NCBI GenBank assembly: GCA_024236095.1 | Contig: JACKLD010000012.1 | Span: 214,291-278,290, forward strand | Direction of reading: 5' to 3' | From: Pseudomonadaceae bacterium | GTDB lineage: Bacteria > Pseudomonadota > Alphaproteobacteria > UBA2136 > UBA6156 | Length of the DNA: 64,000 nt | Shown: piece by piece, positions 7,672 to 63,412 of the stretch | How the letters are laid out: each line of letters opens with the position of its first letter | How positions within the stretch are numbered: the stretch's first letter is position 1 | Made by a program: the position numbers and the translations under genes | Notes under the pieces: model-generated | The model's input: the letters and a program-made list of their open reading frames with translations, nothing else | Database searches by the model: none | Told to the model about the DNA's origin: nothing

Positions 7672-7822
7672 CGCCGATTTTCTCCTTGCACAGTGCACGC
7701 CAAAGGCGTGACATCGGCCGCCCACGGCAGCTTTACATCGGGCCCAAACGCCGGGACTTCGTGCCGTTGGCAAAACGGTAACGCCGATTTTCTCCTTGCA
7801 CGGTGCACGCCAAAGGCGTCAT
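7606..7822. repeat. Tandem direct duplication (2 x about 105 bp, about 97% identical) of the last 21 codons of gltA plus about 40 bp downstream
   Basis: Copy 1 runs about 7606-7709 and copy 2 about 7715-7819, with a 5-bp spacer. Both encode ...[21 protein letters not shown]. Copy 2 abuts a NIME-like repeat. Confidence 0.8.
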
Positions 7823-7940
7823 TCCATCCCCGCCAAGTCGAAGCAACGACGGCAGACGGACAACTGGAGCCGGAACGAAGTGGAGACCAACGCGAAGCGT
7901 AACCAATGCCCGGGGCGCACGTTCCTGTGCAAACCCGCCC
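7808..7940. repeat. NIME/dRS3-like intergenic repeat element
   Basis: The CGCCAAAGGCGTCATTCCATCCCCGCCAAG...GAGACCAACGCGAAGCGTAAC segment is related to 45075-45160 and shares its core with 12060-12128 and 47033-47100. Confidence 0.5.
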
Positions 7941-8048
7941 CCCACATCTTGTCCAAATCCCTTCTAAAAACACCTCTTTCACAACATATCGTACCCACAA
8001 CTTTCTCAACCCCAAAACCTTGAAAAACCTCACCTTCACCACCATCTC

Positions 8049-9089
8049 ATGGAGGTGCAAAAACGCCCCGCCACCGTCACCCGCCGTTTTGCCCTAATGG
8101 CAGGCGCTGCCGTTGCTCTGACCCCATCTACGGCAAAGGCGAATGACTTCATCGAATGGGCCCGCAATATCTTCGGTGATCATGAAAAACCCTCAGCCTC
8201 GCCGTCCCGCGCACGTCGCTCGCAACGCCACAGCCAACCCAAACGCCTGACCGGCACGCCGGCCTTCCAATACTACGATGCCGAAGCCGACAAACTGATG
8301 GCCGGAAAATACGCAGGCTCGCTGCGCCGTATCGTGCTGGAATGCCCGAACATCCGCAAAGAACCCTTCATCATTGCCATCAAGCCCACCGACGGCAAAC
8401 CGTTCCGCTTCAACATGGAGCTGTTGGTCGAAGCCCTCCAATCACCTGATGGCGAGAAGCCATCTCCCCACCTCATCCAAGCCCACGGCCCGGCCATGGC
8501 CATGATGATCGTCCAGCACATGCAACGCTGTTCGCTGCCCGGACAGCAAGAAGCCCATGCCGTCATCTATTCGGCCTACCGCTCCGAGGCAAAAAACCGT
8601 TCCTGCGGCGGCAACCCCAACTCGCTCCACAAACGCTTCGCTGCGATAGATTGGGGCACCATCAACGGGTGCGAACCCGAGGTCATCGCCGGCGCCTCCA
8701 TTGCCGACGACATGGCCACCCGCCACGGCGGCACCGCTTATTACCCGAGCAAATTCATCCCCGACAAACGCCATTGGCGCGCTGCCTTCACCCATACCGA
8801 CCTCGGCACCCTCCGCTTCTGGGAAGACCTGTCGCCGGAAGAGATGCGCTCCGCCTACCAAGAGTGGCGTACCGAGCAACAAGGCCGCATGATTGTGGCC
8901 GAAGCACTCCCGCCCCTCCCCGACCAAAAACCACCCACCCCGCTGCACAACAGCACCTTTGCCAATGCCATGCGCGGCATCCGCAAGAATCCTGTTGCCA
9001 TACCCAACCACACGGCGACCGCCCACGCCAACACCACCTCCGGAATCGGGCAACGTTTGCTTCAATTTGTAACAGATTTCGGGCGCTAA
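8049..9089 (+). CDS. Tat-secreted DUF882/YcbK-like (peptidase M15A-like) protein
   Basis: 346 aa with a twin-arginine motif (TRRFALMAGAAVAL) and a central SAYRSEAKNRSCGGNPNSLHKRFAAIDW segment that matches the DUF882 core. Confidence 0.6.
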   Translation: MEVQKRPATVTRRFALMAGAAVALTPSTAKANDFIEWARNIFGDHEKPSASPSRARRSQRHSQPKRLTGTPAFQYYDAEADKLMAGKYAGSLRRIVLECPNIRKEPFIIAIKPTDGKPFRFNMELLVEALQSPDGEKPSPHLIQAHGPAMAMMIVQHMQRCSLPGQQEAHAVIYSAYRSEAKNRSCGGNPNSLHKRFAAIDWGTINGCEPEVIAGASIADDMATRHGGTAYYPSKFIPDKRHWRAAFTHTDLGTLRFWEDLSPEEMRSAYQEWRTEQQGRMIVAEALPPLPDQKPPTPLHNSTFANAMRGIRKNPVAIPNHTATAHANTTSGIGQRLLQFVTDFGR

Positions 9090-9577
9090 ACCCCCGCCAC
9101 CTTGCGCGCAAACGCCGCATGATGCGCATGGGTCAGCGCTACCGCCAACGCGTCGGCGGCATCGGCACTGGCAATCTTGGCGGTCGGCAACAACACCTTC
9201 ACCATGTGGGCCACTTGCTCTTTCTCGGCACGGCCACTGCCCACCAGCGATTGCTTCACCAACCGCGCGGCATATTCCGCCACCGGCACCCCATGCTGAC
9301 TGGGCACCAGCAAGCACACCCCGCGCGCCTGCCCCAACTTCAGCGAACTGCGGGCGTTGGTGTTCACAAACACTTCTTCCACCGCCGCCGCCTCGGGCTT
9401 GTGCGTGACAATCACCTCGGCCAACCCGGCGGCAATCACCGCCAGTCGCAAAGGCACGGCATAGGATGGCTTGGTGGAAATCCGCCCGCACGCCACAAAG
9501 CGGTACTGGTTGCCCTGCACATCAATCACACCGTAGCCGGTGTGCTCCAAGCCGGGGTCAATCCCTAAAACACGCAT
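9086..9577 (-). CDS. ruvC: Holliday junction resolvase RuvC
   Basis: 163 aa starting MRVLGIDPGLEHTGYGVID, with the conserved RuvC catalytic acidic residues. Confidence 0.9.
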   Translation of the reverse strand: MRVLGIDPGLEHTGYGVIDVQGNQYRFVACGRISTKPSYAVPLRLAVIAAGLAEVIVTHKPEAAAVEEVFVNTNARSSLKLGQARGVCLLVPSQHGVPVAEYAARLVKQSLVGSGRAEKEQVAHMVKVLLPTAKIASADAADALAVALTHAHHAAFARKVAGV

Positions 9578-10205: not shown

Positions 10206-10214
10206 GCCAGAAGG

Positions 10215-10529
10215 TTACTTCTTCTTGGCAGGGGCCTTTTTCTTGGCCGGAGCCTTTTTGGCGGGGGCTTTTTTCACCGCCGCTTTCTTGGCCGGAGCTT
10301 TTTTCACCGCAGCCTTTTTGGCAGCAGGTTTCTTGGCCGGAGCCTTCTTCACCGCCGCTTTCTTGGCAGGGGCTTTTTTCACCGCTGCTTTTTTGGCCGG
10401 AGCTTTTTTCACGGCGGCTTTCTTGGCAGCAGGTTTCTTCACAGCGGCTTTTTTGGCAGGAGCCTTTTTGGCCGGGGCTTTTTTCACCGCCGGTTTCTTG
10501 GCGGCGGGTTTCTTTTTAGCGGTTGCCAT
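10215..10529 (-). CDS. Histone H1-like / AlgP-like lysine-alanine-proline repeat DNA-binding protein
   Basis: 104 aa made almost entirely of [13 protein letters not shown] repeats. The DNA is a tandem 30-33 bp repeat array. Confidence 0.75.
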
Positions 10530-10729
10530 GGGTGCAAACCTTTATTGAGGGGTTCGGTTGAGCCCATAACGCCCTTCGTCATGCGCATCACCTTGCTGCA
10601 AGGTTTGCATATTGGTTTTGTGTGTCAACACTTTGCCGCGTATTGCCATCACCCTGTGACGAATTCAGCGCACATCACCATAGGCGCACACGGCAAAAAC
10701 ACAAGGCAATGTGCCGCTTTCATCTGCCA

Positions 10730-12038: not shown

Positions 12039-12059
12039 GATATTTCTCCCCTTAATAAC

Positions 12060-12128
12060 TTCGCTGGATTCCCGCGTTACGCGTTGCGTTGGTCTCCGCT
12101 ACGCTTCGGCTTGCGGGAATAACGCTTG
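12060..12128. repeat. dRS3-like inverted-repeat element (ATTCCCGC-37 nt core-GCGGGAAT)
   Basis: GGATTCCCGCGTTACGCGTTGCGTTGGTCTCCGCTACGCTTCGGCTTGCGGGAATAAC. Its reverse complement is near-identical to 47040-47095. Confidence 0.6.
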
Positions 12129-15627: not shown

Positions 15628-15945
15628 TTACTGGGCGGTCGCTTCGCCGGCGGCGTTTTCCACCGCTTGGGCGGCGTCTTGCATGGCGTCGGCCGCACCT
15701 TGCATGGCGTCGGCGGCGTCTTGCATCATGCCTTCTTCAGGCATCGGGGCCGCTTCCGGAGCAGGAGCCGCTTCGGGCATCGGGGCCGCTTCAGGCATCG
15801 GAGCCGGCATCGGGGCGGCTTCAGGCATGGGGGCTTCCATCATCGGGGCTTCCATGGCTTCTTGCTTTTCGTTTTGTTGGTACACCATGTAGGCGCCAAC
15901 GGCCAGCACGGCGATACCGGCGATAATCAGAGGAGCTTTGCTCAT
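15628..15945 (-). CDS. Small membrane-anchored protein with PEAAPM tandem repeats
   Basis: MSKAPLIIAGIAVLAVGAY TM anchor followed by (APMPEA)n repeats. A good SD (AAGGAAG) precedes the ATG at 15945. Confidence 0.55.
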   Translation of the reverse strand: MSKAPLIIAGIAVLAVGAYMVYQQNEKQEAMEAPMMEAPMPEAAPMPAPMPEAAPMPEAAPAPEAAPMPEEGMMQDAADAMQGAADAMQDAAQAVENAAGEATAQ

Positions 15946-19154: not shown

Positions 19155-19321
19155 CCGGCTGAATCCTTTAGCTGTTCATATCAACCCAGCAAAGGCGCCG
19201 TGGCGCTTGTTTATCCCTGCCGGGGGCACTCCAATGAACGGGCCGCCGCAGCCACCCGCCAATTCCCGTCGCCATCGGGGAATGCCGCCTTGTAGGCGAG
19301 CCCCCTCCCCCTGTCAAGCCC

Positions 19322-25933: not shown

Positions 25934-26140
25934 GTCACCAAAGCGGCGCGGGCACGTCATAGGTACATTGTGGGGATGCTTCCGCCCGTCTTCAAGGGAT
26001 ACAAAGGTATACCTGCCCATCTCTGTGGCGTTTTGGCCCCGACCTCTGCCCGATGCAATGCCCATGAGAACACGGAGACCACCATACGCCATCACCACGC
26101 CCGCAGGGCCTCATTGCGAGCGCCGTGCGGCAATCTCCCC

Positions 26141-26319
26141 TCCCGTTCATCAACTTTGGAAACTCATTCAAAAACTGGCGGAACGGGAGGGATTGCCGTC
26201 GCTCCGCTCGGCGGCCTGCGGCTCGAGCCCATGCCCGTAGGTCGTATCGAGAGTTCTCACCCTCCCGTTCATCAACTTTGGAAACTCATTCAAAAACTGG
26301 CGGACGGGAGGGATTCGAA
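26141..26319. repeat. Two tandem copies of a 58-bp hairpin unit, each ending in a copy of the tRNA-Ser 3' end (att-site direct repeats)
   Basis: CCCTCCCGTTCATCAACTTTGGAAACTCATTCAAAAACTGGCGGA(A)CGGGAGGGATT appears at 26141-26198 and 26259-26319. TGGCGGAACGGGAGGGATTCGAA equals the 3' end of tRNA-Ser at 31909-31931. Confidence 0.65.
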
Positions 26320-26483
26320 TTGAAGAAATAATGCTTTAATTTGATTCAGTTAAAAAATTTTCTAAAAATCCCAAGGCCCCTATTTAAGCCCCCATAACAA
26401 TCCGCTTTTTACTTTCAAACACTTGATTCATAAGTACTAATCCTTACTATTCATCAATACTGTAGGTTATAAATCATCTCTCG

Positions 26484-26942
26484 TCAACTTGACGTGCATG
26501 CAGATACAGCTCTGCTGTATACCCTAACCGATTCAATTGTATTATTTTCAACAAAATCCCAGAAATCTTCGCTAAACTTTAATCTAGGGTTGAAGGCGAT
26601 TGAAAAACCACTTGAAGCTAACTTTTTCAAATTTAAAGCTTCTGCAAACCACTCTAGTACATTGAGAGGGTTTGAATGCACGCTGGGCTTCTGTGCCACA
26701 AATACTAAATGTCCACCATCACGGTAAAACTCATCAGATAAAACAATAAAACACTCCAAAAACGGCCAATCATCAAAAGTTGAAGGAATACCACCGGGAG
26801 TAGTGATTAAATCTTTCTTCCGGTGACACGCAATTCTTGAAAAAGCATATTTTTCATCATCAAGTAGCCCATTATTAATATAGGCAAATTTTGTATTCTT
26901 AGAATTTGTAAATTCAAAACTTTCGGAAAAAAATATTCTTAA
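26484..26942 (-). pseudogene. Decayed gene remnant (no ATG; frame open to 26942) in a very AT-rich stretch
   Basis: The ORF-track M at 26757-26759 is a TTG. The frame continues upstream with ...KYAFSRIACHRKKDLITTPGGIPSTFDDWPFLECF... and no ATG. Confidence 0.3.
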
Positions 26943-27259
26943 TTATCTCACTTCTAGATGTTTTTTGTTCTAACGGTAACGATGCTTGAGCATCCTCAAT
27001 AAGTGAAAACGCATAAACACCAAAACGGATTTTTCCCTCACTCATTCGAGTTACCTCTCCATTGATTTCTTAGAAACTTCATCCACCACTTTCACATCTG
27101 AAAACCAGAAGTTTTAACTCTCCTCGCACAACAAGTTATTAAGTTAATTCAACGGGTAGATTATATAATAAAATTCAAATCGTAAGTCAAACTTTACAAT
27201 ACTACAGTGCCGCTGTAATCTTCTTGTGTTAAGGCTTATTTTGTTGTATACGAAACGGC

Positions 27260-28291
27260 ATGATAAATAATGTAAAGTCTGCCGTTTGTGACCCAAAGCC
27301 AATAATTACCTTGGGTGTTCCGGCGCGTAATGAGGCTCAAAATCTCCCACGGTTGGTATCCTCCCTTCTACATAATCAACAAATTGTTCAGGATCGATAT
27401 CATTTACAAACACTTATTTGCATAAATGGCTCAACTGACAAGAGCGAAGAAGTCGCCTGTAGTTTGGGGGGTGACCCACGTTATCAGGATTTAAACATTA
27501 GTGTGTTATCATCTGATGCCGGGAAAATGGCTGCACAACAAGAAATCTGCCGCCAACGGCAGGGTGAGTGGGTTGTTTTCGCCGACGCTGATACTGAATT
27601 GGATCAAAACTGCCTAAATGGCTTGTTGATCGATGCGGAGCAACATCCGGAGGCACAGGTAGTATATGCTGATACTATTCCACAATGGTCTGGAAAATTA
27701 AGTTTGTTTGACTGGATGCTCAGCGTTCACTATCAGCAACCTGATGTTTTAACGCATCGTCACTACTTCCAAGGGCGTAGCTTTTTGATTAAATGCCCCG
27801 ATGTTTTTCTCTCCACGATGCGGAAAGGTGAGGGTTTGGAAAAGGCCTATCCTCGATTTTTAAACCTTCAAGCAGGGCCACAAATTGACGATGTGTACTT
27901 GTCACGTTTGATTTTCGACAAGTACGGCGCTGGATCAATGTTAAAATCCCCTTCGGCAAGGTTGAACTATGTTCCGCCCCGCAGCATGGCAGATTACTAC
28001 CGAGGCATGAAACGCCTGCTTATTGAGATTCATCGGCTGGATATTTTGTATCCTGAACATGCTCACTTACAGCGAGATTATTTCCAGCGCCGGACAATTC
28101 TTAAACGTTGGGCTGGATTGACGGCCTCAACCCAGTTGCGTCATATGGGTTACAAGAGCTTTGACCATGTGGTGAGGGGTATTGTTAAAATGCAGATTGC
28201 AAAAGGGTATTTGTTCCCAAATTCAGAAACAGAGCTTTGGCCGGAGACGAGGACAACCAAGTCCTTTGAGCAGGAGGATAAGGAAGTATAA
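27260..28291 (+). CDS. Glycosyltransferase family 2 (GT-A fold)
   Basis: ITLGVPARNEAQNLPRLVSSL N-terminus and a DAD (DxD) motif in VVFADADTELD. Soluble, low GC. Confidence 0.7.
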   Translation: MINNVKSAVCDPKPIITLGVPARNEAQNLPRLVSSLLHNQQIVQDRYHLQTLICINGSTDKSEEVACSLGGDPRYQDLNISVLSSDAGKMAAQQEICRQRQGEWVVFADADTELDQNCLNGLLIDAEQHPEAQVVYADTIPQWSGKLSLFDWMLSVHYQQPDVLTHRHYFQGRSFLIKCPDVFLSTMRKGEGLEKAYPRFLNLQAGPQIDDVYLSRLIFDKYGAGSMLKSPSARLNYVPPRSMADYYRGMKRLLIEIHRLDILYPEHAHLQRDYFQRRTILKRWAGLTASTQLRHMGYKSFDHVVRGIVKMQIAKGYLFPNSETELWPETRTTKSFEQEDKEV

Positions 28292-30529: not shown

Positions 30530-30645
30530 CCCCAAACCCACCACCCCACCCCCAGCCCGAGGGCGAAGCCGTACAGCACCATAAACACATACACGATCAC
30601 CATTTCAGGCCGTCCGGGTGGGGGAATATGGGGTTCGGGAATCAT
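30526..30645 (-). CDS. Putative 39-aa hydrophobic peptide (single TM)
   Basis: MIPEPHIPPPGRPEMVIVYVFMVLYGFALGLGVGWWVWG. GGAGG lies 6 nt upstream of its ATG, which sits 2 nt after the stop of the upstream ORF, and its stop overlaps the Nudix stop by 4 nt. Could be spurious. Confidence 0.25.
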   Translation of the reverse strand: MIPEPHIPPPGRPEMVIVYVFMVLYGFALGLGVGWWVWG

Positions 30646-30646
30646 C

Positions 30647-31015: not shown

Positions 31016-31023
31016 AAGACCCG

Positions 31024-31908: not shown

Positions 31909-32002
<94 letters not shown>

Positions 32003-36760: not shown

Positions 36761-36861
36761 GAAACGATTCCCAACACAGGCGTTGCGTGTCAATAACTTC
36801 AAGAAACCAATTGCTTGCGTCAAGGTTGCTGCCGCGTTTCAGATCTGCGGTGCAAGGTAAA

Positions 36862-39585
<2,724 letters not shown>

Positions 39586-42605: not shown

Positions 42606-43044
42606 TTACTGCGCAACACCATCCATCAAACTGTGCAACTCGTCCGTCTGCTTCACCACACCGCCCGCCGGTGCGGCCGGAGCCGCCACCGCCTTGCCGC
42701 CGGTGGTGCATGACAACAGGCGGATATCATACCGCGGATGCTCCAGCCCCGCCACCTCCGGATAGACGTTGAACATCCATCCGGCAAAGATGCCCTCGCC
42801 ATCCAGCGTACTCACATCCAGCCATGCCACGTCTTGCCCGGGCACGCCGTCCACCCCGCGCACGCACTTGCGCAGCACCACCTGCACCGGCAGGTTGCTT
42901 GAAAAACTGTTTTCCACCAGCGTCACGTCGCGCACGCGGTTGGTGTTCTTGTCCAAAAGCCTGATACGCGCCGCCCCGGTATCCGCCAATGCACCCCCGG
43001 CCACCAAAACAGCCAGCATCACCGCAAGCGCCCGCAACATCATG
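42606..43044 (-). CDS. Hypothetical secreted protein
   Basis: [20 protein letters not shown] signal peptide. Overlaps the MerR gene by 5 nt. Confidence 0.45.
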
Positions 43045-43483
43045 CGCCTTCTCCGGCCAACATGTCGCGGATACCCCGCAGCTCCTTCACAAACGGCCCC
43101 ATGCCGCAACCGGCCTGTTGCAGGTCTTTCTTCTTGGCCTTGGCAAGGTACGCTTGCACACCGCGCACCGCCATGCCTTGGTCATACAGCAAGGTCTGGA
43201 TAAGCCGCAGCAACGCCACGTCTTCGGCCTTGTAATAGCGCCGCCCGCCGCTTTTCTTCATCGGTTTCAGCTGCGGAAACTTGCTTTCCCAAAAGCGCAG
43301 CACATGGGTGGCCACACCAAGCTCGACCGCCACTTCGCTGATGGTGCGGTAGGCTCCGGCGCTTTTGCTTTCGCGCTTCACGTTGGGTGGCGCCACCTTG
43401 GTGCGCCCCCCCACCTTCAGGCCACCGTTCTCGGCGGTCGTGGCCGTGGGCACAAAGTCAAACAGGTCGTTCACCGCCGCCAT
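43040..43483 (-). CDS. MerR-family transcriptional regulator
   Basis: [25 protein letters not shown]. Conserved position downstream of ihfA. Confidence 0.7.
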
Positions 43484-43494
43484 GCCGAACAGCC

Positions 43495-43788
43495 TTACTT
43501 GCCGTTCATCTTGTCTTTCAGGTTGTGCGAGGCCTTGAACACCAGCACCTTGCGCGGGGTAATCGGCACTTCTTCGCCGGTCTTGGGGTTGCGGCCCATG
43601 CGCGCGCGTTTGCTGCGCACGGAAAAGGTGGCAAAGTTGGAAAGCTTCACCGTCTCTCCCCGGCCAACGGTCTTGATGATTTCCTCAAAGGTGGCATCCA
43701 CCACTTCGGCGGCCTCCTTGCGCGAGGTGCCCACCTCGCGGTACACGGCGTCGGCCAAATCCATGCGGGTCAGGGTTTTGCTGCTCAT
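43495..43788 (-). CDS. ihfA: Integration host factor subunit alpha
   Basis: [11 protein letters not shown]...[12 protein letters not shown]...VFKAS matches the IHF/HU fold. GGAGG lies 8 nt upstream of the ATG at 43788. Confidence 0.85.
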
Positions 43789-43966
43789 TGAAGTATCCTC
43801 CATTCATTCAGACAATCTGCGGTTTTGGCAAGGGAAACCTCCCTCGCCGAGAGAGCCAACCACCCCCCTCTCAACATCCGGCAACCTACGCGTTCCCCCG
43901 CCCAAGGTCAAGAATGCAGAACACAATTTCCCTGCCAAAATCACACCTTGTAAGGTAACCACGCAC

Positions 43967-44959
43967 CTACCACCGTACAACCGCACTCCCCCAAGAGAGC
44001 CCCGCGCCAAACGCCTGCATCAACACGATGTCACCGCGCGCAATGCGCCCATCCGTCACCGCCGCATCCAGTGCCAGCGGAATGCTCGCCGCACTGGTGT
44101 TGGCGTGCTTGTCCACTGTCACCACCAGCTTGTCGGCCGCGACCCCCAAGGCATCGCGCGCCGCCTCCAAAATCCGCACATTGGCCTGATGCGGCACCAG
44201 CCAATCCACATCCCCAAGCGCCAACCCCGCTTGCGCCAACACCGGCGGCACCTGCCCCATCTGCCGCACCGCCTGCTTGAACACCTCGCGCCCCTGCATC
44301 ACCACCACGCCCGCCGTCTGGGTGGAAGACACCCCGCCGCTGCTCTTCAAACACCCCGCCTGCGTGCCGTCCATCCCCAGTTCCACCGCCAGCAGCCCCT
44401 GCGGTGCCGCATCACCCGTCAATCCCTTAACTCCGTCATCCGTACATCCCATCACCACCGCCCCGGCCCCGTCGCCAAACAGCACGCAAGTCCCCCGGTC
44501 GTTCCAGTCCACTACACGGCTGAAGGTCTCCGCCCCAATCACCAACGCATGCTTGCCCATGCCCTGCGCCAACAAGCCCTTGGCGGTGGCCAAGGCCATA
44601 ATGAACCCGCTGCACGCACCGTTCACGTCCAGCGCCGCACAGGTGGTCGGCGCCCCAATCGCGCCTTGCACCAACGCCGCCACACTGGGGAAACTCAAGT
44701 CCGGCGTACACGTCGCCACCACAATCACGCCAACATCTGCCGCCGCAATCCCCGCCCGTTCCAACGCCTGCACCGCCGCATCCCGCGCCAGCGTAAAGGT
44801 GCTTTCATCCTTTTCACAGATATACCGCTGCCTGATCCCCGTCCGCGAGACAATCCACGCATCGTTCGTCTCCACACCCCGCGCCACCAAATCGTCATTG
44901 CTCACACAGGTTCGCGGCAACGCCGCACCGGTAGAAAGAATCGGAAAGTTCATCGCCAT
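43967..44959 (-). CDS. fabH: 3-oxoacyl-ACP synthase III
   Basis: SRTGIRQR motif, the active-site Cys in NGACSGFIMALATA, and the C-terminal HQAN and GAG motifs. Confidence 0.9.
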   Translation of the reverse strand: MAMNFPILSTGAALPRTCVSNDDLVARGVETNDAWIVSRTGIRQRYICEKDESTFTLARDAAVQALERAGIAAADVGVIVVATCTPDLSFPSVAALVQGAIGAPTTCAALDVNGACSGFIMALATAKGLLAQGMGKHALVIGAETFSRVVDWNDRGTCVLFGDGAGAVVMGCTDDGVKGLTGDAAPQGLLAVELGMDGTQAGCLKSSGGVSSTQTAGVVVMQGREVFKQAVRQMGQVPPVLAQAGLALGDVDWLVPHQANVRILEAARDALGVAADKLVVTVDKHANTSAASIPLALDAAVTDGRIARGDIVLMQAFGAGLSWGSAVVRW

Positions 44960-45059
44960 CCCCTCCTTCTCGCACAGCCCGACCAAATTGTCATCCTTGC
45001 GAAAGCATGGGTCTTGATCAAACGACCAAATTGTTTGTACGGCAAGAGGGGGGGGTAAG

Positions 45060-45250
45060 GGGGGGACGAAGCCCCCCTTGCGCCGAAGGCGTCATTCCAG
45101 CCCCGCCAAGCCGAAGCAACGGCAACTGACGGACAGCTGGAACCCAATGCCCAACGCAAACGTTCCCGTACAAAAACAACCATAGAAAAAATCCCTGCTT
45201 TCGCAGGGATGACAAACCTCGCTTTCGTCATTGCGGGCCACAAGGCCAAG
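45060..45250. repeat. Composite NIME-like repeat (G-run, GTCATTCCAGCCCCGCC... core, ATCCCTGCTTTCGCAGGGATGAC inverted repeat)
   Basis: Related to 7808-7940. Contains a dRS3-like palindrome. Confidence 0.6.
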
Positions 45251-45264
45251 CAATCTCCCGAAGT

Positions 45265-45474
45265 TTACTCGGCAGCTTCAACCACCGCTTTCGCAGCCTT
45301 CACCTGCACACCCTTGTACCACAGGCTGCCGTCTTGCTCCTTCACCACATGGTGACGCAGGCCCAACGTGCCGGTCTTGGGGTTGGCGGCAATCGTGCCG
45401 GTTTGCGCTTCAGCCTGACGTTGCTGACGCATGCCTTTGCGGCTGGGACTGGTTTTCTTCTTAGGTACGGCCAT
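45265..45474 (-). CDS. rpmF: 50S ribosomal protein L32
   Basis: MAVPKKKTSPSRKGMRQ...LRHHV. Confidence 0.85.
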   Translation of the reverse strand: MAVPKKKTSPSRKGMRQQRQAEAQTGTIAANPKTGTLGLRHHVVKEQDGSLWYKGVQVKAAKAVVEAAE

Positions 45475-45639
45475 GGTCGGCTCCTTCCTTCAAAAATCTG
45501 GTTAACAGGGCGCCTCTTACCCCAACTTGCCCCCCCGCGCAAGACTTATTTCATCAATTCTCCCTCTCCCCGCAATACCACGACACCCCATTGTCACGCC
45601 TTGCTCCCCTGTCATATAGCCCCACATCAAGTCCGGGGG

Positions 45640-45878
45640 AAACTCCGGCCATATCCATTACCAATCTACCAAATCAGGCCGCAGGCCTTCCATCACGGGC
45701 GCCAGCCCGTCATGCCCGCGCAGGCGGGTACCCACGTTACACGTCACGCCAAAGGCGTTCCATCTTTCGAACATACCAACATCGAACACTCGAACATCGA
45801 CATCCCCACCCACGCCACAGGCATTCCACCTGCCAACATCCCTTTACTAACATCCAACATCCTCTTACACTCCGCCCC
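45640..45878. repeat. Composite repeat with a GCCCGCGCAGGCGGG palindrome and a CGAACAT heptamer tract
   Basis: Shares ...CAGGCCGCAGGCCTTCCAT...TTCGAACATACCAACATCGAACACTCGAACATCGACA...TTACTAACATCCAACATC with 48355-48545 and 58200-58320. Ends at the ATG of the BamE-like gene. Confidence 0.6.
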
Positions 45879-46301
45879 ATGAAACACCTCATCCTCGCCC
45901 TCACCCTTGCCGTGGCCGCCACGGCCTGTACCGAAACCGTCTCCACCCACGGCCAAATCATCCTGCCCAGCCGCCTCGCGCAGGTGCAGCCGGGGGTCTC
46001 CACCAAGTCCGACGTGCAATACCTGCTGGGCAGCCCCAGCACCACCGGCACCTTCAACGACAACCGCTGGTACTACCTTACCAGCACCTTGGTTAGCGAA
46101 CCTCTGTCTCCCAACCAACTCAAGGCCCGTAAAGTCATCGCGATCGACTTCGACCCCTCCGGCACCGTCGCCGGCGTGCAAACGCTGGATGAAACCGCCG
46201 GCAAACCGGTCACGCCGGATACGGCGGAAACCGCCACCCACGGCCAAAGCCTCGGCGTGCTCGACTCCATGATGCAAAACGTCGGCATGGGCGGCTTTTA
46301 A
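45879..46301 (+). CDS. Outer-membrane lipoprotein, BamE/SmpA/OmlA-like
   Basis: MKHLILALTLAVAATAC lipobox. The SRLAQVQPGVSTKSDVQYLLGSPS...NRWYY region is SmpA_OmlA-like. Confidence 0.6.
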   Translation: MKHLILALTLAVAATACTETVSTHGQIILPSRLAQVQPGVSTKSDVQYLLGSPSTTGTFNDNRWYYLTSTLVSEPLSPNQLKARKVIAIDFDPSGTVAGVQTLDETAGKPVTPDTAETATHGQSLGVLDSMMQNVGMGGF

Positions 46302-46392
46302 CCCGCCTCCCCTGGCATGCGCCCTAACAATCTACAGCCCGCAGGGCCGTCATTCCGACACAGGCTGGAACCCAGGGCGAAACCCGTGTAGC

Positions 46393-47010
46393 ATGACCGA
46401 CATGACGCGCTTCCCAAACCCTCCCAACCACGCCCAATCCGGCGCCCTCTTCGGGCTGGATGCCCGCCTCGCCCTCGCCATCTTCGCCATCCTCACCGTC
46501 ATGGCGGGCTACGTGGCCTATGGCCGCATCGGGCTGGCCAAAACCGCCGCCCTCGTCAGCGAGCTGCAAAGCATCAACCAAGCCCTCGCCGCCTACCAAA
46601 CCGATATGGGTACCTTCTACCTCTTCACGCTGGATAAGGCTCCGGACGACACCGGCGCCACCGATCTCGAGGCCCTGTGGGACAAATCCAAACTGCTCCC
46701 CGGCTTCCAACACCTCTGGAACGGCCCCTACCTCCACCGCGAAACCCGCCAGCACCCCTACTTTGGCCGCTTCACCATCTTTTACGGCCAGTCCGACCGC
46801 CAAACCACCTGCACCATCGATAGCGACTGCTACGTCTGGCTGGCACTCACAAAAGTACCCGCCAACGTCTGGGACGACATCAACAAGGCACTTGACGAAG
46901 ACGGCGGCAAGCAGCCCGAGCCCGCCGACGCCCGCACCACCTCGGGCCTTATCCAAGCCGATGCCGCCACCGACCCCCGCACCCTCATCTACCGCACCGT
47001 CTCACGTTAA
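46393..47010 (+). CDS. Hypothetical membrane-anchored protein, paralog A
   Basis: 205 aa. Its N-terminus (QSGALFGLDARLALAIFAILTVMAGY) is conserved with the gene at 47137. Confidence 0.5.
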   Translation: MTDMTRFPNPPNHAQSGALFGLDARLALAIFAILTVMAGYVAYGRIGLAKTAALVSELQSINQALAAYQTDMGTFYLFTLDKAPDDTGATDLEALWDKSKLLPGFQHLWNGPYLHRETRQHPYFGRFTIFYGQSDRQTTCTIDSDCYVWLALTKVPANVWDDINKALDEDGGKQPEPADARTTSGLIQADAATDPRTLIYRTVSR

Positions 47011-47032
47011 CCGTACAATAAAGACAGCGTCT

Positions 47033-47100
47033 CTCCCGCGAGCCGGAGCGTAGCGGAGACCAACGCAACGCCTAACGCGGGAATCCGGAAAATTTGAACC
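47033..47100. repeat. dRS3-like inverted-repeat element (same family as 12060-12128, opposite orientation)
   Basis: TCTCCCGCGAGCCGGAGCGTAGCGGAGACCAACGCAACGCCTAACGCGGGAATCCGG. Confidence 0.6.
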
Positions 47101-47136: not shown

Positions 47137-47754
47137 ATGTACCATCTCCTTATGAACACATCCTTTTCCCAGCACTCCGAAAGCGGCGCCCTTTTCGGAC
47201 TCGATGCCCGCATCGCCCTCGCCATCTTCGGCGTCCTCTCGCTCGTCTCGGGCGCAGCCCTGCTGGCGGGGCTCGACAGCTCCCGGGCCAAGTCGCTGGC
47301 CACCGAACTCTCCGACCTCGGCAAAGGCATCGAAGCTTTGCAGTACGACTTGCGTGACGATATTTTCACCGTTGCCACCGTCCCCAACGGTACCGAAGCC
47401 TTCCGCACCCTGTTCGATAAAGAAGCCGTCGCCGAAACCGGCACATGGCGCGGCCGCTGGCTGGGCCCGTACATTACCTTCACCGGCACCCAACACCCCC
47501 GCTACGGCGCCATGTCTCTGGAAAAACACCCCGCCGTCCACAGCCAATCCTGCGGCGGCGACGACACCTGCTACCAGTGGGTGGTCTACGGCAATGTCAA
47601 ACCGTCCATCAGCGCCGAGGTCAACACCATCATCGACGGCCCGCACGAAACCACGCCGGAAAACCAGGGCCGCCTGCAATGGGACGACGGCGGCGACGAC
47701 ACCGGCATCCTTTACTACCGCGCCGCCAAAGCGCTCACCACAGAAGAACGTTGA
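47137..47754 (+). CDS. Hypothetical membrane-anchored protein, paralog B
   Basis: 205 aa starting ESGALFGLDARIALAIFGVLSLVSGAAL. It shares the W..GPY...T..HP.YG...L...D..CY.W core with paralog A. Confidence 0.5.
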   Translation: MYHLLMNTSFSQHSESGALFGLDARIALAIFGVLSLVSGAALLAGLDSSRAKSLATELSDLGKGIEALQYDLRDDIFTVATVPNGTEAFRTLFDKEAVAETGTWRGRWLGPYITFTGTQHPRYGAMSLEKHPAVHSQSCGGDDTCYQWVVYGNVKPSISAEVNTIIDGPHETTPENQGRLQWDDGGDDTGILYYRAAKALTTEER

Positions 47755-47786
47755 CAACCCCGCCCTAATTGTATACCAACAGCGCC

Positions 47787-48350
47787 ATGAACCTGAAACT
47801 CCGCTCCTTCGCCATTTCCCTCACCGCGATGACCGCGCTGATCCCCAACCTCGGCGCCGACACCGCCCCGCGCCTTGATGCCACCCTGCTGGCCAAGGGC
47901 CTTGCCCAGCTTGAAGATCACCTCCCCCAACTCCCCGATGTTGACATCGGCACCCCGACCATTGAAGACACTGGCGCCGCCACCCAAAGAGACCTGCAAC
48001 AAACAGCCAAGCTAGAATTCCCCACCCCCGTCATTACCAACCTTACCCCGTCCAACACATGTCCGGCACTCACCACCGCCCTCAATCACATCAACATAGC
48101 CTATGCCCAAGCCCAAGAATTCCGGGCCAACCGCGCCATGGAAATGCAGCAAATCCGTACCACGACTTTCAACCAAGACCTCCCCAAGCCTCTGCTTGGT
48201 TACATCTCCGCCGCCATCCGTAACCGCATCGTTTTCGATCCCGACCTCCCCGCCATTAACAAAGGCCTTCACGACTACTTCACAGAACTGGCCCGCAATG
48301 CCCGCACCGCCGCCAATGACTGCCTCATCCGCGACGGCAAAATGATGTAG
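47787..48350 (+). CDS. Hypothetical secreted protein
   Basis: MNLKLRSFAISLTAMTALIPNLGA signal peptide, 187 aa. Confidence 0.5.
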   Translation: MNLKLRSFAISLTAMTALIPNLGADTAPRLDATLLAKGLAQLEDHLPQLPDVDIGTPTIEDTGAATQRDLQQTAKLEFPTPVITNLTPSNTCPALTTALNHINIAYAQAQEFRANRAMEMQQIRTTTFNQDLPKPLLGYISAAIRNRIVFDPDLPAINKGLHDYFTELARNARTAANDCLIRDGKMM

Positions 48351-48354
48351 CCCC

Positions 48355-48545
48355 ACGGCCCGCAGGGCCGTCATCCCCGCGTAGGCGGAGACCCACGTTA
48401 CAAATCAGGCTGAAAACCTTCCACTGTCATCCGGTTGAAGAACGGGATCCACGACCAACCTACAAACCACGCCGCAGGCGTTCCATCTTTCGAACATTCG
48501 AACATACCAACATCGACCACTCGAACATCGACACACGCCCCCACG
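48355..48545. repeat. Composite repeat with GTCATCCCCGCGTAGGCGGAG and a CGAACAT heptamer tract
   Basis: Member of the same family as 45640-45878 and 58200-58320. Lies between two convergent genes. Confidence 0.6.
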
Positions 48546-48561
48546 GCCAAAGGCCGTTCCA

Positions 48562-49068
48562 CTACACTCCCCGAATCTTCCCCGCCACCCTATCCAGCAC
48601 CACATGCACAAAGCCCACCTCGGCGGGCTTGCTGGCAAAACCCTTGGCAATGTTCAGAAACTCATTCACCACCACCTTCACCGGCAGATCGGGGCGCACC
48701 GAAAGCTCGGCACAGGCCGCCCACAACAACGCGTACAACACGGGGTCCAGCCGCTCCAGCGGCCATTCGTCCAGCATGTGCGCGCCAATCAATTCCCGAT
48801 ACCGCACCGCCCCCTCGCCTGCTTCCGCCACAATCTCGGCAAACAGCGCGGCATCGGCCTTGCGGGCTTTCACGTCGGCCAAAAATTCCGCCGCCACCTC
48901 ATCTACCGGCTCGTTCATCTTGCGCGCGGCAAACAACACCTGCACCGCACACACCCGTGCTTCGGTGCGGCGGTCGCCGCTCAGGCTGGCCTCGGTGGCC
49001 GGAAACGCGTCATCGCCTTTTTCCCAATCGGTTTCAGGCAGGGGGATATCAAACAGGTTCGTGCTCAT
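48562..49068 (-). CDS. nusB: Transcription antitermination factor NusB
   Basis: RRTEARVCAVQVLF...ALLWAACAEL...VVNEFLNIAKGF NusB fold with an N-terminal extension of about 30 aa. Confidence 0.85.
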   Translation of the reverse strand: MSTNLFDIPLPETDWEKGDDAFPATEASLSGDRRTEARVCAVQVLFAARKMNEPVDEVAAEFLADVKARKADAALFAEIVAEAGEGAVRYRELIGAHMLDEWPLERLDPVLYALLWAACAELSVRPDLPVKVVVNEFLNIAKGFASKPAEVGFVHVVLDRVAGKIRGV

Positions 49069-56369: not shown

Positions 56370-57223
56370 GGCGCCTCAACCATCGCCGCCACATTCATGT
56401 ACTGGCGTGCATCATTGCCGTAATAATTCTTCAACAAGGCTTTTACTTCACCACTGACAATCAACTCGCGCATCGCCACATCCAGCATGTACTTCAACTC
56501 ACTGTCACGAGGCAGTTCAAAACCCATCGGAAAAGACCGCACAGGCTTATCCTCAATGACCCTCACCTTCCCCGGGGTTTTCTCCATATAATCCATCCCC
56601 GACCAGTACGGCATGAACATCACATCCGCCTTGCCCGCCAACATGGCTTCCACCGCCTCGGCAAACGAGACAATATCCGGCAGTACATGCAACTTGGCTT
56701 TTGGGTAATCTTCTTCGGCAATATGGATGGTCGGGTCGTTATCAATCCCCGCCACCACCACCGATTCATCGTTTATGCGTCTAAAATCCTCATCAAACCG
56801 ATGGTCATCCACCCGCACCAACACCATCACGGGGTTGTAGTAATAAGGGAGCGTCGCAAACACCTGTTTGGCCTTGCGGCTGTCAATCCAGTTACCGGTA
56901 CAGAACATGTCGAACTTGCCACCATTCAGCCCCAACGGCGTCATGCCAAAGCCGGTTTCTTCCACCCACTCAACGCTCAAACCAAGCTTTGCGGCCAAAG
57001 CCGTCACAACCTCATAGTCAAGTCCCGAGATCTCGCCCGTATTCGGCTCCACCACCAGCGCCGGAGGAATACTCGCATACCCGCACCGCAACACCCCCGT
57101 CCGCATCACCCGTTCATACGCGCTCTCACGCTGGGCAGAAGGCCCGTCCCCCTTCCCCAACCACCACACCGTCAGCGCGCTGGCCACAACCGCCACGACC
57201 AAAGCCAGAAGCATTTGCTTCAT
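56366..57223 (-). CDS. Periplasmic substrate-binding protein (SBP_bac_3-like)
   Basis: Signal peptide MKQMLLALVVAVVASA and a two-lobe SBP-like body (VLRCGY...GEISGLDYEV...DMFCTGNW). Confidence 0.75.
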   Translation of the reverse strand: MKQMLLALVVAVVASALTVWWLGKGDGPSAQRESAYERVMRTGVLRCGYASIPPALVVEPNTGEISGLDYEVVTALAAKLGLSVEWVEETGFGMTPLGLNGGKFDMFCTGNWIDSRKAKQVFATLPYYYNPVMVLVRVDDHRFDEDFRRINDESVVVAGIDNDPTIHIAEEDYPKAKLHVLPDIVSFAEAVEAMLAGKADVMFMPYWSGMDYMEKTPGKVRVIEDKPVRSFPMGFELPRDSELKYMLDVAMRELIVSGEVKALLKNYYGNDARQYMNVAAMVEAP

Positions 57224-58095
57224 TTTAATCCTCCTACAGAAAAATCATACGGCTTGGCAACAGAAACCACCCCATCAACCTCAAATAGATTGCTCCTAAT
57301 AATCCTATCGAGCTTCTGCGTCATTCGAAGCTCCTCTGTACCGGCATCTATCAAATTTTTAAGCTGTATTTCATCAGGTGCAACAACAGCCCCGACGGCC
57401 AAAAGCCACAAAGGCTGTACCCCCTTCACCTTACGGTGTTTGATTTTATTATGTTTATTATGGAACGAGTTGATCTCAGGTATGCTTATGTGGGCATCGG
57501 CCTTACGGGTTGAGACAAACATAGAAAGGTCACTAACCGGGGTTAGCTGGGGCAGACTTATCAGCTTTGCCTTTGGAAACTCTTGTCGAGTAATAACCCC
57601 CGGTGTGGTTCCGTCAAGCGCCACGAAACGAATATCCGGCGCATTTAGTCGGGAAATGTTATTATCAAAACGCGTATCATTCTCTTCTACATACACATAG
57701 AATGGCGCATAAAAAATCGGATCAGCAAAGAGCATGGAACGTGCCCGCGTCGCAGAAGATGTTGCAAACGCACAAAAAGCATCTACCCGCCCCGAAGCAA
57801 GTGCGGCACCAATATCACCGTATCCAACCTCCTCGGTCCATTCTAATTGAATATCCAAGGCCTTACCAACACTCTGCATATACTCATACATCACTCCAGA
57901 CAGCTTGCCCGTATTCACATCCTTTACAAAGAACGGCTCAAGCACGCTATACCCACACCTTAGCACCCCCGTCCGCATCACCCGTTCATACGCGCTCTCA
58001 CGTTGGGCAGAAGGCCCGTCCCCCTTCCCCAACCACCACACCGTCAGCGCGCTGGCCACAACCGCCACGACCACCGCCAACAGCATCTGTTTCAT
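57220..58095 (-). CDS. Periplasmic substrate-binding protein, paralog with low-GC body
   Basis: The first 50 aa are identical to the downstream paralog; the rest is divergent and AT-richer. The track's ORF start at 58155 is upstream of the real ATG at 58095. Confidence 0.7.
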   Translation of the reverse strand: MKQMLLAVVVAVVASALTVWWLGKGDGPSAQRESAYERVMRTGVLRCGYSVLEPFFVKDVNTGKLSGVMYEYMQSVGKALDIQLEWTEEVGYGDIGAALASGRVDAFCAFATSSATRARSMLFADPIFYAPFYVYVEENDTRFDNNISRLNAPDIRFVALDGTTPGVITRQEFPKAKLISLPQLTPVSDLSMFVSTRKADAHISIPEINSFHNKHNKIKHRKVKGVQPLWLLAVGAVVAPDEIQLKNLIDAGTEELRMTQKLDRIIRSNLFEVDGVVSVAKPYDFSVGGLK

Positions 58096-58199
58096 GAAAT
58101 CCCACCACCTTCTTTTGCCCGCCATGGTAAAGGGCTTCCCCGCCTGCGGCAACACCCTGCACCATTACAAGGCACCCCAGAAACCTCACCTCTCCTCTG

Positions 58200-58320
58200 C
58201 CAACACGAAGCCGTCATCCCCGCGCAGGCGGGGATCCACGTTACAAACAGGCCGCAGGCCTTCCATTGTTCGAACATACCAACATCGAACATTCGAACAT
58301 CTACTTACTAACATCCAACA
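58200..58320. repeat. Composite repeat (GTCATCCCCGCGCAGGCGGGGATCCA dRS3-like palindrome plus CGAACAT heptamer tract)
   Basis: Its terminal TTACTAACATCCAACATC encodes the last residues and stop codon of the GGDEF-EAL gene on the minus strand. Confidence 0.6.
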
Positions 58321-61709: not shown

Positions 61710-61983
61710 CCCATAATAAATCCATACCAGTCCATTTATAAAAGCTTACCGCCCTTTCGCGCAACCTTTTGACATATCGCTCATCAAAAGGATTACCCTC
61801 CCGTATTTTCCGCTCACGTTCCGCCTTTTTCTCAGGAGATGCATTCATCCACTCATCATCGGCAATCCCGATAGTATTCGCAATATCCTGCTCCCAATGC
61901 TCTCTGGCCGTCATCGGTCTCCGGCTCTCCAACAAATCCCGCAATTCCTGCGTCGTCACGGTGGGCTTGTCACTCAGTGCCAT
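61681..61983 (-). CDS. Hypothetical small protein upstream of and overlapping the Fido gene (possible cognate partner)
   Basis: 100-aa ORF whose stop overlaps the fic start by 29 nt. Confidence 0.4.
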   Translation of the reverse strand: MALSDKPTVTTQELRDLLESRRPMTAREHWEQDIANTIGIADDEWMNASPEKKAERERKIREGNPFDERYVKRLRERAVSFYKWTGMDLLWDEELDGPVR

Positions 61984-62020
61984 GACGTTTTCTCCCCTTG
62001 CGGTACGGTTATAAGCCTCT

Positions 62021-63280
62021 TTATCTCAAAATCAAGTCTTTCTCCCACACCCCCACATCTTCCGCCCGCAACCGAACATTAAGCCGCCACTCCTCACCTT
62101 CCAACACACTCTCCAACACATCGCCATGGGCATACAGCCACGCCAACCGCTTGCCGTCACTGGCGGGCACCCGCACCTCCAAAACTTGCCATGCCTGCTT
62201 CAGTTCCGCCTCCAACGCCGCCAGCAGGTTGTCCACTCCCTCACCGCTGACCGCCGAAACCCCCAAACCGCCCTCCGGCACCTCCACACCGTCCGCCAGC
62301 CTGTCCACCTTGTTGAACGCCACCACCCGAGGCTTGTCAGCGGCCCCAATCTCACGCAGCACCGCATCCACATCCGCCGCCTGCGCGCGCCAGTCGGGGT
62401 TGCTGGCATCGCGCACTTCCAGCAGCAGGTCGGCCATCACCACCTCTTCCAAGGTTGCCTTAAAGGCTTCCACCAATTCATGCGGAAGGTCGGCCACAAA
62501 GCCCACCGTATCGGCCAACACAATCTCCAAGCCACCGGGCAGGCGGAACCGCCGCATCAACGGGTCCAGCGTTGCAAACAACGCATCGGCCACCAGCGTG
62601 CCCGCCTCCACCACGCGGTTGAACAACGTGCTCTTGCCCGCATTGGTGTAGCCCACCAGCGCCACGGTGGGTATCTGCGCCCGCTGACGCGCCACCCGCT
62701 GCAAATTGCGCGTGGCCGCCACATCCGCCAACTCAGCCTTCAACCGCCCAATCCGCGTCTTGATCATCGTGCGGTCAAGGTCAAGCTGTCGTTCCCCCGG
62801 CCCGCTGGCCTTGCCGGTGCCGCCGCGCTGACGCTCAAGGTGGGTCCACTGCCGCACCAAACGGCTTTGCATGTAAGTCTGCCGCGCCAGCTCCACCTGC
62901 AGTTTCCCCGCCCGCGTCCGCGCCCTGGAGGCAAAGATCTCCAAAATCAACCCTGTCCGGTCCAACACCTTGGCCTGCAATCCCACCTCCAGGTTACGCT
63001 GCTGACGCGGGCTCAAACCTGCATCCACCACCACCACTTCAACCCCGTCATCCGCCACCCGCGCTTTCAACTCGTCCACCTTGCCTCCGCCAATCAGCGT
63101 GGCAGGGTTGATTTTCGACAACCTCACCCCCTCGCCGCACACTACCTCCAACCCCAGCGAATCCGCCAAGTTTTCCGCCTCATGCAACTTGGCCTCCAAC
63201 GTGCGTACGGGTGCAACCGCCCCGCTACCGCGCTCCGGCGGCATTTCCACTGCCACCACCATGGCCCTGCCCAAACTCAT
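62021..63280 (-). CDS. hflX: GTPase HflX
   Basis: HflX N-domain plus G-domain motifs (VALVGYTNAGKSTLFN, DTVGF, NKVD). Confidence 0.9.
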   Translation of the reverse strand: MSLGRAMVVAVEMPPERGSGAVAPVRTLEAKLHEAENLADSLGLEVVCGEGVRLSKINPATLIGGGKVDELKARVADDGVEVVVVDAGLSPRQQRNLEVGLQAKVLDRTGLILEIFASRARTRAGKLQVELARQTYMQSRLVRQWTHLERQRGGTGKASGPGERQLDLDRTMIKTRIGRLKAELADVAATRNLQRVARQRAQIPTVALVGYTNAGKSTLFNRVVEAGTLVADALFATLDPLMRRFRLPGGLEIVLADTVGFVADLPHELVEAFKATLEEVVMADLLLEVRDASNPDWRAQAADVDAVLREIGAADKPRVVAFNKVDRLADGVEVPEGGLGVSAVSGEGVDNLLAALEAELKQAWQVLEVRVPASDGKRLAWLYAHGDVLESVLEGEEWRLNVRLRAEDVGVWEKDLILR

Positions 63281-63339
63281 CCCTTGCCTCTACCACGCCC
63301 CCATCCAAAAAGCGACAACCAAACAAAAGCGGGCCACCG

Positions 63340-63412
63340 GCCCGCCTACGCCGCAGGCGTCATTCCAGCAAAAGCGGGAATCCAGCTTGTCTGGAACAAC
63401 GCTTTCCCCGCT
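63340..63412. repeat. dRS3-like repeat (ATTCCAGCAAAAGCGGGAAT) between hfq and hflX
   Basis: GCCGCAGGCGTCATTCCAGCAAAAGCGGGAATCCAGC. Confidence 0.5.

Follow-up and report, generated by a model that had tools for sequence, protein, structure and literature searches.

Mosaic hairpin repeats of the Ssn-related type in the intergenic DNA of an uncultured alphaproteobacterium

We describe a family of oriented hairpin repeats in a 64-kb stretch of contig JACKLD010000012.1 (assembly GCA_024236095.1), which was analysed as a whole and is called the window below. Its G+C content is approximately 58%, and its GC skew is strongly negative from end to end. The window holds about 13 hairpin copies, ten of which are packed into 44.97-48.46 kb. 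Every listed repeat site is intergenic relative to the called genes, and the neighbours are ordinary housekeeping genes, including gltA, NUDIX, ymdB, rplM, fabH, rpmF, bamE, nusB and hflX. An earlier note, made from the letters alone, had pointed to ten sites with related repeats. Nine of them are found where it placed them, and at the tenth the palindrome is present but lies at 19262-19283 rather than 19215-19245, an offset of about 40 nt. The evidence given below suggests, with a probability of roughly 0.65, that the repeats are hairpins of the Ssn-related motif (SRM) or Neisseria Transformation Sequence (NTS) type, arranged in lineage-specific mosaic units, and that an Ssn nuclease is encoded elsewhere in the genome.

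The copies share one oriented unit, GTC-AT(N)CC(N)GC-tetraloop-GC(N)GG(N)AT-CCA, in which the final base after CCA is C or G. The stem is composed of 8 bp (AT-N-CC-N-GC) and is closed by a 4-nt loop of GCAG, GAAG, GAAA or AAAA. The hairpin is often followed by GTTACA, and a small GC hairpin, e.g. GCC-GNA-GGC, usually stands ahead of it. Repeat finding combined with self-BLAST resolved three larger mosaic types, A, B and C, in agreement with the mosaic organisation that had been proposed for these elements. In types A and B, the arms of this shared hairpin are separated by an insert of 33-37 nt, as in TTCCAGC-N34-GCTGGAA (45095-45142) and TCCCGCG-N35-CGCGGGA (47034-47082).

Type A is represented by 7808-7871 and 45081-45144, which are 86% identical (E 9e-14 in self-BLAST). 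The first belongs to a plus-strand mosaic of three pieces at 7806-7935, namely a small hairpin, a type A long-loop hairpin headed by GTCAT at 7817, and the 37-nt core of type B in partial form (7868-7903). The second closes a plus-strand composite at 45047-45156, in which a G-run hairpin, GGGGGG..CCCCCC (45060-45079), and a small hairpin, GCGCC-GAA-GGCG, precede the type A unit; here GTCAT stands at 45091, and the arms TTCCAGC (45095-45101) and GCTGGAA (45136-45142) enclose a 34-nt loop. Type B comprises 12057-12126 on the minus strand and 47026-47095 on the plus strand, 86-90% identical (90%, E 2e-16, for 12066-12126 against 47026-47086), in addition to the partial copy at 7868-7903. The minus strand at 12057-12126 reads GTTATTCCCGC, the 37-nt core and GCGGGAATCCAG, and the example quoted earlier, ATTCCCGC-N37-GCGGGAAT, is exact at 12069-12121. 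In the plus-strand copy, the arms TCCCGCG (47034-47040) and CGCGGGA (47076-47082) stand around the same core.

Type C is found at 45700-45830, 48361-48562 and 58204-58320, and its copies are 79-85% identical and have the exact 20-mer TTCGAACATACCAACATCGA in common. Self-BLAST aligns 45707-45801 with 58211-58304 (85%, E 5e-23) and 48367-48427 with 58210-58269 (85%, E 5e-11). All three lie in plus-strand mosaics. That of the rpmF-bamE spacer (45672-45830) combines modules of the form GCC-NNA-GGC-STTCCAY at 45678, 45748 and 45814 with an NTS-like hairpin at 45709-45734, which matches the SRM strictly, and an A/C-rich tail containing TTCGAACATACCAACATCGA. The mosaic at 48354-48562 has short-loop hairpins at 48370-48395 and 48426-48451, an STTCCAY module at 48471 and an A/C-rich tail. 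The one at 58197-58320 carries the best NTS-like hairpin of the window (58212-58239, again a strict SRM match), followed by an STTCCAY module at 58251 and an A/C-rich tail; a second quoted example, GTCATCCCCGCGCAGGCGGGGATCCA, is exact here at 58213-58238. One further module copy, GCC-NNA-GGC-CTTCCAC at 40200-40215, is located within a sulphur-transport gene (40041-40601, minus) and is not intergenic.

The remaining copies are shorter. Solitary short copies are found at 46333-46383 and 63343-63393. The former is a plus-strand short-loop hairpin, GTCATTCCGAC-acag-GCTGGAACCCA, in the 91-nt spacer between bamE and a pilin-like gene. The latter belongs to a row of three consecutive plus-strand hairpins at 63328-63393, GCGGGCC-acc-GGCCCGC, GCC-gca-GGC and GTCATTCCAGC-aaaa-GCGGGAATCCAG, the last being a strict SRM match; the third quoted example, ATTCCAGCAAAAGCGGGAAT, is exact at 63362-63381. 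Directly after rpmF stands a minus-strand short-loop copy (45179-45229, GTCATCCCTGC-gaaa-GCAGGGAT) with a T-run behind it; this copy and the one at 45091 are paired in inverted orientation. A degenerate short-loop copy, GTCATCCTTGC-gaaa-GCATGGGT, lies at 44974-45024 on the plus strand. The palindrome at 19262-19283, ATTCCCG-N8-CGGGAAT (equivalent to ATTCCC-N10-GGGAAT), is degenerate, has no GTCAT head and was assigned no strand.

To characterise the hairpin, an alignment was made of 22 short-loop copies taken from the window and from seven further loci. The 8-bp stem is 95.5% paired across these copies, and compensatory changes on both sides are seen in five of the eight pairs; no shuffle out of 500 gave pairing and covariation values as high, and the signal was lost on sliding the partners. 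T18, C19, A20 and T21 are invariant, and conservation is at least 90% at G17 and C41. A covariance model built from this alignment, with seven training members from the window, recovers eight short-loop window copies, i.e. those seven and the new copy at 44974-45024 (E 0.005). When folded as single-stranded DNA, the short-loop composites form two to three consecutive hairpins with z = -4.2, -3.7 and -2.5, the lowest value belonging to 63328-63393.

Counts within the window bear on whether the resemblance could have arisen by chance in a GC-rich, strongly skewed genome. Such an origin might be suspected from the loose pattern of the earlier note, ATTCCM-N6-12-GGRAT, which is only weakly enriched: it occurs at two sites (four matches on both strands) against 0.8 expected, and two of 100 shuffles reach four. 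A permissive count of GTCAT plus any hairpin likewise gave 18 against 12.4 expected, which is not above shuffles. Since the latter count does not discriminate, the oriented core and the covariance model were used instead. The oriented core GTCATNCC-N10-GGNAYCCA, with at most one mismatch, has six matches, all on the plus strand, against 0.07 expected, and none of 100 shuffles reaches six. The module GCC-NNA-GGC-STTCCAY also has six matches, all on the plus strand, against 0.13 expected. A search with the 37-nt core, as had been proposed, returned two occurrences, at 12076-12112 (minus) and, with three mismatches, at 47040-47076 (plus), where none is expected by chance. Chance is refuted by the repeated 37-mer, the oriented core, the stem covariation and the copy-to-copy BLAST values (E 1e-11 to 1e-23), and its probability appears negligible.

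The sequence of the hairpin resembles an already described repeat. The NTS, CGTCATTCCCGCGMAVGCGGGAATCYRG, is a longer oriented repeat that includes approximately half of the neisserial dRS3 copies, and the SRM is defined as HGTCWYN(0-2)YYVSBRHN(0-5)WNVSBRGN(0-2)RNCYNB (PMC11893778). SsnA, a 94-aa single-domain GIY-YIG protein of family cd10448, binds the NTS hairpin and cuts just upstream of it, acting on single-stranded DNA only and on the forward strand only (PMC11893778). Cleavage requires the three bases before the palindrome, and binding requires the cytosine right after it (PMC11893778). In the window, the copies at 58212-58239 and 63358-63385 are each identical to the NTS at 25 of 28 positions, and two further copies have four to five mismatches. 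Three strict SRM matches (45708, 58212 and 63358) are present against 0.36 expected, a number reached by two of 300 shuffles. The conserved positions of the window copies, GTC before the palindrome and C after it, coincide with the positions mapped for cleavage and binding by SsnA in PMC11893778.

The hairpins thus belong to a kind already described. In common with the NTS and SRM they are oriented, with a GTCAT head, a ATNCCNGC stem, a 4-nt loop and a C after the stem; their best copies reach 25/28 identity; they are intergenic and clustered; and Alphaproteobacteria are also among the known carriers. SRMs span many phyla, and their alphaproteobacterial carriers include Rhizorhabdus, Wolbachia, Rickettsia, Sphingomonas and Devosia (PMC11893778). 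The differences lie in the many degenerate window copies, the loops of 33-37 nt in some of them, the three-hairpin composites with a G-run hairpin, and a strong replication-strand bias, of which a term search of the main text of PMC11893778 gave no mention. What is new is the lineage-specific architecture, i.e. the three-hairpin composites and the long-loop or nested copies, together with a possible replication-strand rule. An uncultured alphaproteobacterial lineage can now be placed among the carriers of Ssn-type repeats.

Several observations weigh against assigning the repeats to an Ssn system. The strict SRM pattern is matched by three copies only. The long-loop copies fall outside the published motif, have folding energies indistinguishable from those of shuffles (z -0.3 to -1.6), and in two cases give weak, non-significant scores with the covariance model (E 0.19 and 1.1). 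The counts cover the 64-kb window and are no substitute for a genome-wide count. No GIY-YIG or Ssn gene was found in the window by motif regular expression, tblastn or a permissive hidden Markov model (HMM), the tblastn query being an approximate sequence of E. coli YhbQ that served as a rough probe only, and none in about 117 kb of related contigs (L002, L006 and L128-L133). It was also reported that 19% of SRM-rich genomes are without an ssn homologue (PMC11893778).

The motif typically flanks ssn genes (PMC11893778), and a small GIY-YIG gene does accompany such hairpins in other contigs. A metagenome scan for the composite of G-run hairpin plus GTCAT returned at least 120 loci, many of which are chance terminator-plus-start-codon matches. 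Among the matches listed, a small GIY-YIG open reading frame (ORF) stands beside hairpins in at least four distinct loci, L028, L053, L103 (of which L116 is a duplicate) and L056. These ORFs were recognised by a motif regular expression and a small HMM built from them, and NCBIfam gave only sub-threshold matches. At L056 (4472-4923) the arrangement is hairpin-ssn-hairpin, and the small GIY-YIG gene is frameshifted, which reflects either a pseudogene or an assembly error. The same two-module composite, GGGGTTATAAGGGGGC..GCCCCCTTATAG, about 10 nt, and then GTCATTCCCGA-loop-TCGGGAATCCA, is seen in a large group of low-GC (40-46%) contigs from bioreactor and other metagenomes, including L010, L018, L034, L040, L051, L067 and L070, where it is densely arrayed in both orientations, with as many as about 15 copies in 5 kb.

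Since the 64 kb hold no ssn gene, and the association of hairpin and ssn is reproduced in unrelated contigs rather than in the lineage of the window, we infer by analogy that an Ssn nuclease recognises the window repeats and that this has a biological effect. A typical unit consists of a G-run hairpin, a small GC hairpin, the GTCAT head, the main hairpin with a 4-nt or 33-37-nt loop, a CCAC/G tail and sometimes an A/C-rich extension. The hairpins would form when the DNA becomes single-stranded. A small GIY-YIG nuclease of the Ssn family (cd10448), presumably encoded elsewhere in the genome by analogy with the systems of Neisseria, N. elongata, N. wadsworthii and Wolbachia, would then bind to the hairpin on just one of the two strands, cutting a few bases upstream of it. 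Such cutting would shorten or destroy single-stranded DNA bearing the motif, e.g. incoming transforming or conjugating DNA, and could shape recombination around the flanked genes. The repeats themselves behave as small non-autonomous elements, which arise, disappear, become nested and change orientation within short evolutionary distances.

The resemblance to dRS3 had been taken earlier as a taxonomic clue to a Neisseriales-like lineage. On this account the repeats would be true neisserial dRS3 or neisserial intergenic mosaic elements (NIME), acting as hot spots of recombination and providing filamentous phage or IS110-type recombinases with attachment sites. The core does resemble dRS3 and the NTS, one inverted pair (45091+/45213-) stands around about 40 nt, and in some copies arms enclose inserts of 33-37 nt as they do in mosaic elements. 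The two kinds of repeat also share an ATTCCC..GGGAAT-type palindromic core, a mosaic arrangement and an association with variable or rearranged regions. The likeness in sequence class holds, as the 25/28 identity to the NTS indicates, but the strict 20-bp dRS3 form ATTCCC-N8-GGGAAT has no exact match in the window, the nearest being one site (63362) with one mismatch. The window stems vary (ATGCCCGC, ATCCCCGC, ATTCCAGC, ATCCCTGC). Arms enclose 33-37 nt in four copies, and apart from the one inverted pair most copies are direct and unpaired; in dRS3/NIME, inverted dRS3 copies bracket repeat units of 50-150 bp. No phage or IS110 genes are present at the sites. Comparison with Correia elements, also small intergenic repeats of Neisseria, was equally negative: their architecture is unrelated, and the 26-bp terminal inverted repeat TATAGTGGATTAACAAAAATCAGGAC is unmatched in the window even with three mismatches.

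The genomic background is likewise not that of Neisseriaceae, in which DNA uptake sequences are abundant. None of eight neisserial DNA uptake sequence dialects, nor the Haemophilus uptake sequence, is enriched in the window; GCCGTCTGAA occurs once, by chance, and the 12-mer DNA uptake sequence is absent. The 23S and 5S rRNA genes lie at 36647-39578 on the minus strand, and the best matches of the 23S rRNA, at about 80% identity, are Alphaproteobacteria only, although the database compared also contains many beta- and gammaproteobacterial rRNA operons. No 16S rRNA gene or spacer tRNA was found upstream of the 23S and 5S genes within the window, so that the rRNA genes appear unlinked. Two contigs of GCA_049297695.1, a metagenome-assembled genome (MAG) labelled Alphaproteobacteria, are syntenic with the window: L006 with 42.1-49.2 kb, at 75-80% nucleotide identity, and L128 with 1-16 kb. 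The host is an uncultured, deep-branching alphaproteobacterium. The public label 'Pseudomonadaceae bacterium' is contradicted by the 23S rRNA and the syntenic relatives and is probably wrong. The citrate synthase P0001 (6340-7671) has a 100%-identical public entry labelled 'MAG: Pseudomonadaceae bacterium'.

The hairpin is also distributed widely. One scan of species-representative genomes for the hairpin variant of the window with its CCACGTTAC tail returned seven loci, five of them in MAGs of Dehalococcoidia, Fibrobacteria, Comamonadaceae and Pirellulales and two, one being L006, in GCA_049297695.1. The absence of uptake sequences, the alphaproteobacterial 23S rRNA and synteny, and the presence of the hairpin in several phyla imply that the repeats are no marker of a Neisseriales-like lineage. 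This corrects a tempting taxonomic inference, because dRS3-like hairpins are not Neisseria-specific. Accordingly, it is very unlikely that the repeats are true dRS3 or NIME elements of such a lineage.

A role in RNA, whether in terminating transcription, in stabilising mRNA as 3' hairpins or in 5' leaders, would agree with the intergenic location of all copies, with the T-run right after rpmF in one copy (45191-45210, minus), which is the sole intrinsic-terminator lookalike, and with the tails of type C that extend to the bamE start codon. Terminator-like sites are, however, not enriched in the densest region (6 against 5.3 expected). The orientation follows the DNA strand and not the direction of the neighbouring gene, and copies lie between convergent, divergent and co-directional genes. 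No Rfam family was matched by the repeats: at gathering thresholds the whole window yields only the 23S and 5S rRNAs and one tRNA, and 44.9-48.7 kb gives no match at E <= 1. The same spacers are, in addition, repeat-free in a close relative, and we regard a function in RNA as improbable. A plasmid database queried with a repeat cluster gave no match. CRISPR arrays were dropped as a candidate in view of the irregular spacing and the absence of a cas context in the sequence, as were integron attC sites, for which integrase context and attC core sites are absent.

To follow the turnover of the repeats, orthologous spacers were compared between the window and the related MAG GCA_049297695.1. The gltA-M15 spacer contains the 130-nt mosaic and a 110-nt tandem duplication in the window and is repeat-free in the relative, and the fabH-rpmF spacer holds the repeat cluster in the window and none in the relative. 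Between bamE and the pilin-like gene, the window has 91 nt with a hairpin, against about 1 nt in L006. The rpmF-bamE spacer has a hairpin in both genomes, in opposite orientation. The NUDIX-ymdB spacer carries the long-loop copy in the window and a short variant hairpin, GTCATGGCGAGCGTAGCGTGGCCATCTC, in L128, in the same orientation. This comparison provides a small concrete example of the fast turnover of such elements.

The earlier note had also called the repeats likely sites of recombination and rearrangement. Between the two genomes, a 4.3-kb block (42705-47007; L006 1814-6190) that carries the genes for DUF2155, MerR-like, fabH, rpmF, bamE and pilin-like differs in orientation with respect to its flanks, i.e. 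it is inverted. Repeats adjoin one of the breakpoints in either genome, namely 47026-47095 at the right-hand end in the window and three hairpins at L006 1405-1585, and the second breakpoint of each genome is repeat-free. Since repeats stand at only one breakpoint per genome, a repeat-mediated inversion is not established. Gain, loss, re-orientation and proximity to a breakpoint are thus borne out, and a role of the repeats in rearrangement is plausible but only weakly supported. The 110-nt tandem duplication (7603-7819, plus) comprises the final 69 nt of gltA together with downstream spacer, in two copies that share 96% identity and each close with the small hairpin CGCCAAAGGCG. On its right side the second copy stops 0-3 nt from the GT|CAT head of the neighbouring hairpin repeat, near the position where SsnA would cut.

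The orientation of the repeats may be related to replication. At third codon positions, genes on the plus strand have a GC skew of -0.31 and those on the minus strand one of -0.21, and this independence of gene strand indicates a replication-linked bias. All strict and most degenerate copies, 10 of the 12 classifiable ones in the window, lie on the C-rich strand, as do 3/3 copies in L002 and about 8/8 in L006, the latter including variant hairpins seen by eye. In the orthologous block that runs collinear in the window and L006, the skew is of opposite sign in the two genomes, the plus-strand value for fabH being -0.34 in the window and +0.22 in L006, and the repeats are on the C-rich strand in each genome. 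The same genes having opposite skew in two genomes, the unusually strong skew (up to 0.3) tracks replication direction and has re-equilibrated. The C-rich strand is the leading-strand template, so that the cleavable strand is the one that is least often single-stranded at the fork. Over all 127 metagenome and genome loci examined, no strand bias is present (79 against 92), implying that the bias is particular to the strongly skewed lineage of the window.

Because the copies are few and partly linked, the strand rule is only a lead. We tentatively suggest, while considering it rather unlikely, that the forward, cleavable strand is kept almost solely on the C-rich strand and that the flip of the 4.3-kb block reset both skew and repeat orientation, owing to replication-coupled single-strand insertion or to purging, by the cell's own nuclease, of copies on the exposed lagging-strand template. 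Footprints of such breakage and insertion would then be seen in the 110-nt duplication, which ends exactly at a GT|CAT head, and in copies whose loop holds a second element. If true, this would connect Ssn-type systems with the biology of the replication fork as well as with incoming DNA, and the replication-strand orientation would add a mechanistic constraint on a nuclease family characterised only in 2025.

Strand bias and turnover also call to mind the repetitive extragenic palindromes (REP) of E. coli and Pseudomonas and their mosaics (bacterial interspersed mosaic elements, BIME), which a REP-associated tyrosine transposase (RAYT), an IS200/IS605-like Y1 enzyme, would spread and maintain by acting on single-stranded hairpins at the fork. 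The window repeats similarly form mosaic clusters of short oriented hairpins in intergenic DNA, show a replication-related strand bias, are gained and lost between relatives, and presumably depend on single-strand DNA biology. Their conserved head is GTCAT, however, and not GTAG, the typical signature of a REP head. Neither a Y1 enzyme nor any other transposase was found by Pfam among the approximately 52 ORFs of the window, and the partner gene beside the composite in other contigs encodes a GIY-YIG protein rather than a RAYT. The sequence itself matches the NTS and SRM nearly base for base. The parallel with REP/RAYT was remarked on in the Ssn paper itself (PMC11893778). Taken together, a REP/RAYT-type system seems a doubtful explanation, and we prefer the assignment to SRM/NTS-type hairpins.

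Other features of the window are as follows. The type B repeat at 47026-47095 lies between two genes for 205-aa paralogues (46393-47010 and 47137-47754) with a hydrophobic, pilin-like N-terminus; only the 46393-47010 protein was searched against Pfam, and it gave no match. A 193-aa ORF (47769-48350) follows these paralogues and is absent from L006. A low-GC island at 26100-31930 (42-46% G+C) contains genes for a family-2 glycosyltransferase, a methyltransferase, a NUDIX protein and a truncated phage-type integrase (31024-31743, minus). The integrase gene adjoins tRNA-Ser (31909-32002), and the 3' end of the tRNA recurs in direct repeats (26163-26194, 26285-26316 and 31896-31927) that resemble attachment sites.

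Tandem arrays are present as well. One at 10209-10553, between the cytochrome b561 and yebC genes, is composed of about 18 copies of a 15-nt unit, and its minus strand would encode a Lys/Ala-rich repeat; a similar array of 18-21-nt units lies at 15645-15835. Finally, a 147-nt stretch is repeated with 93% identity at 57077-57223 and 57949-58095, within two adjacent solute-binding-protein genes (SBP_bac_3) that are tandem paralogues outside the repeat family.

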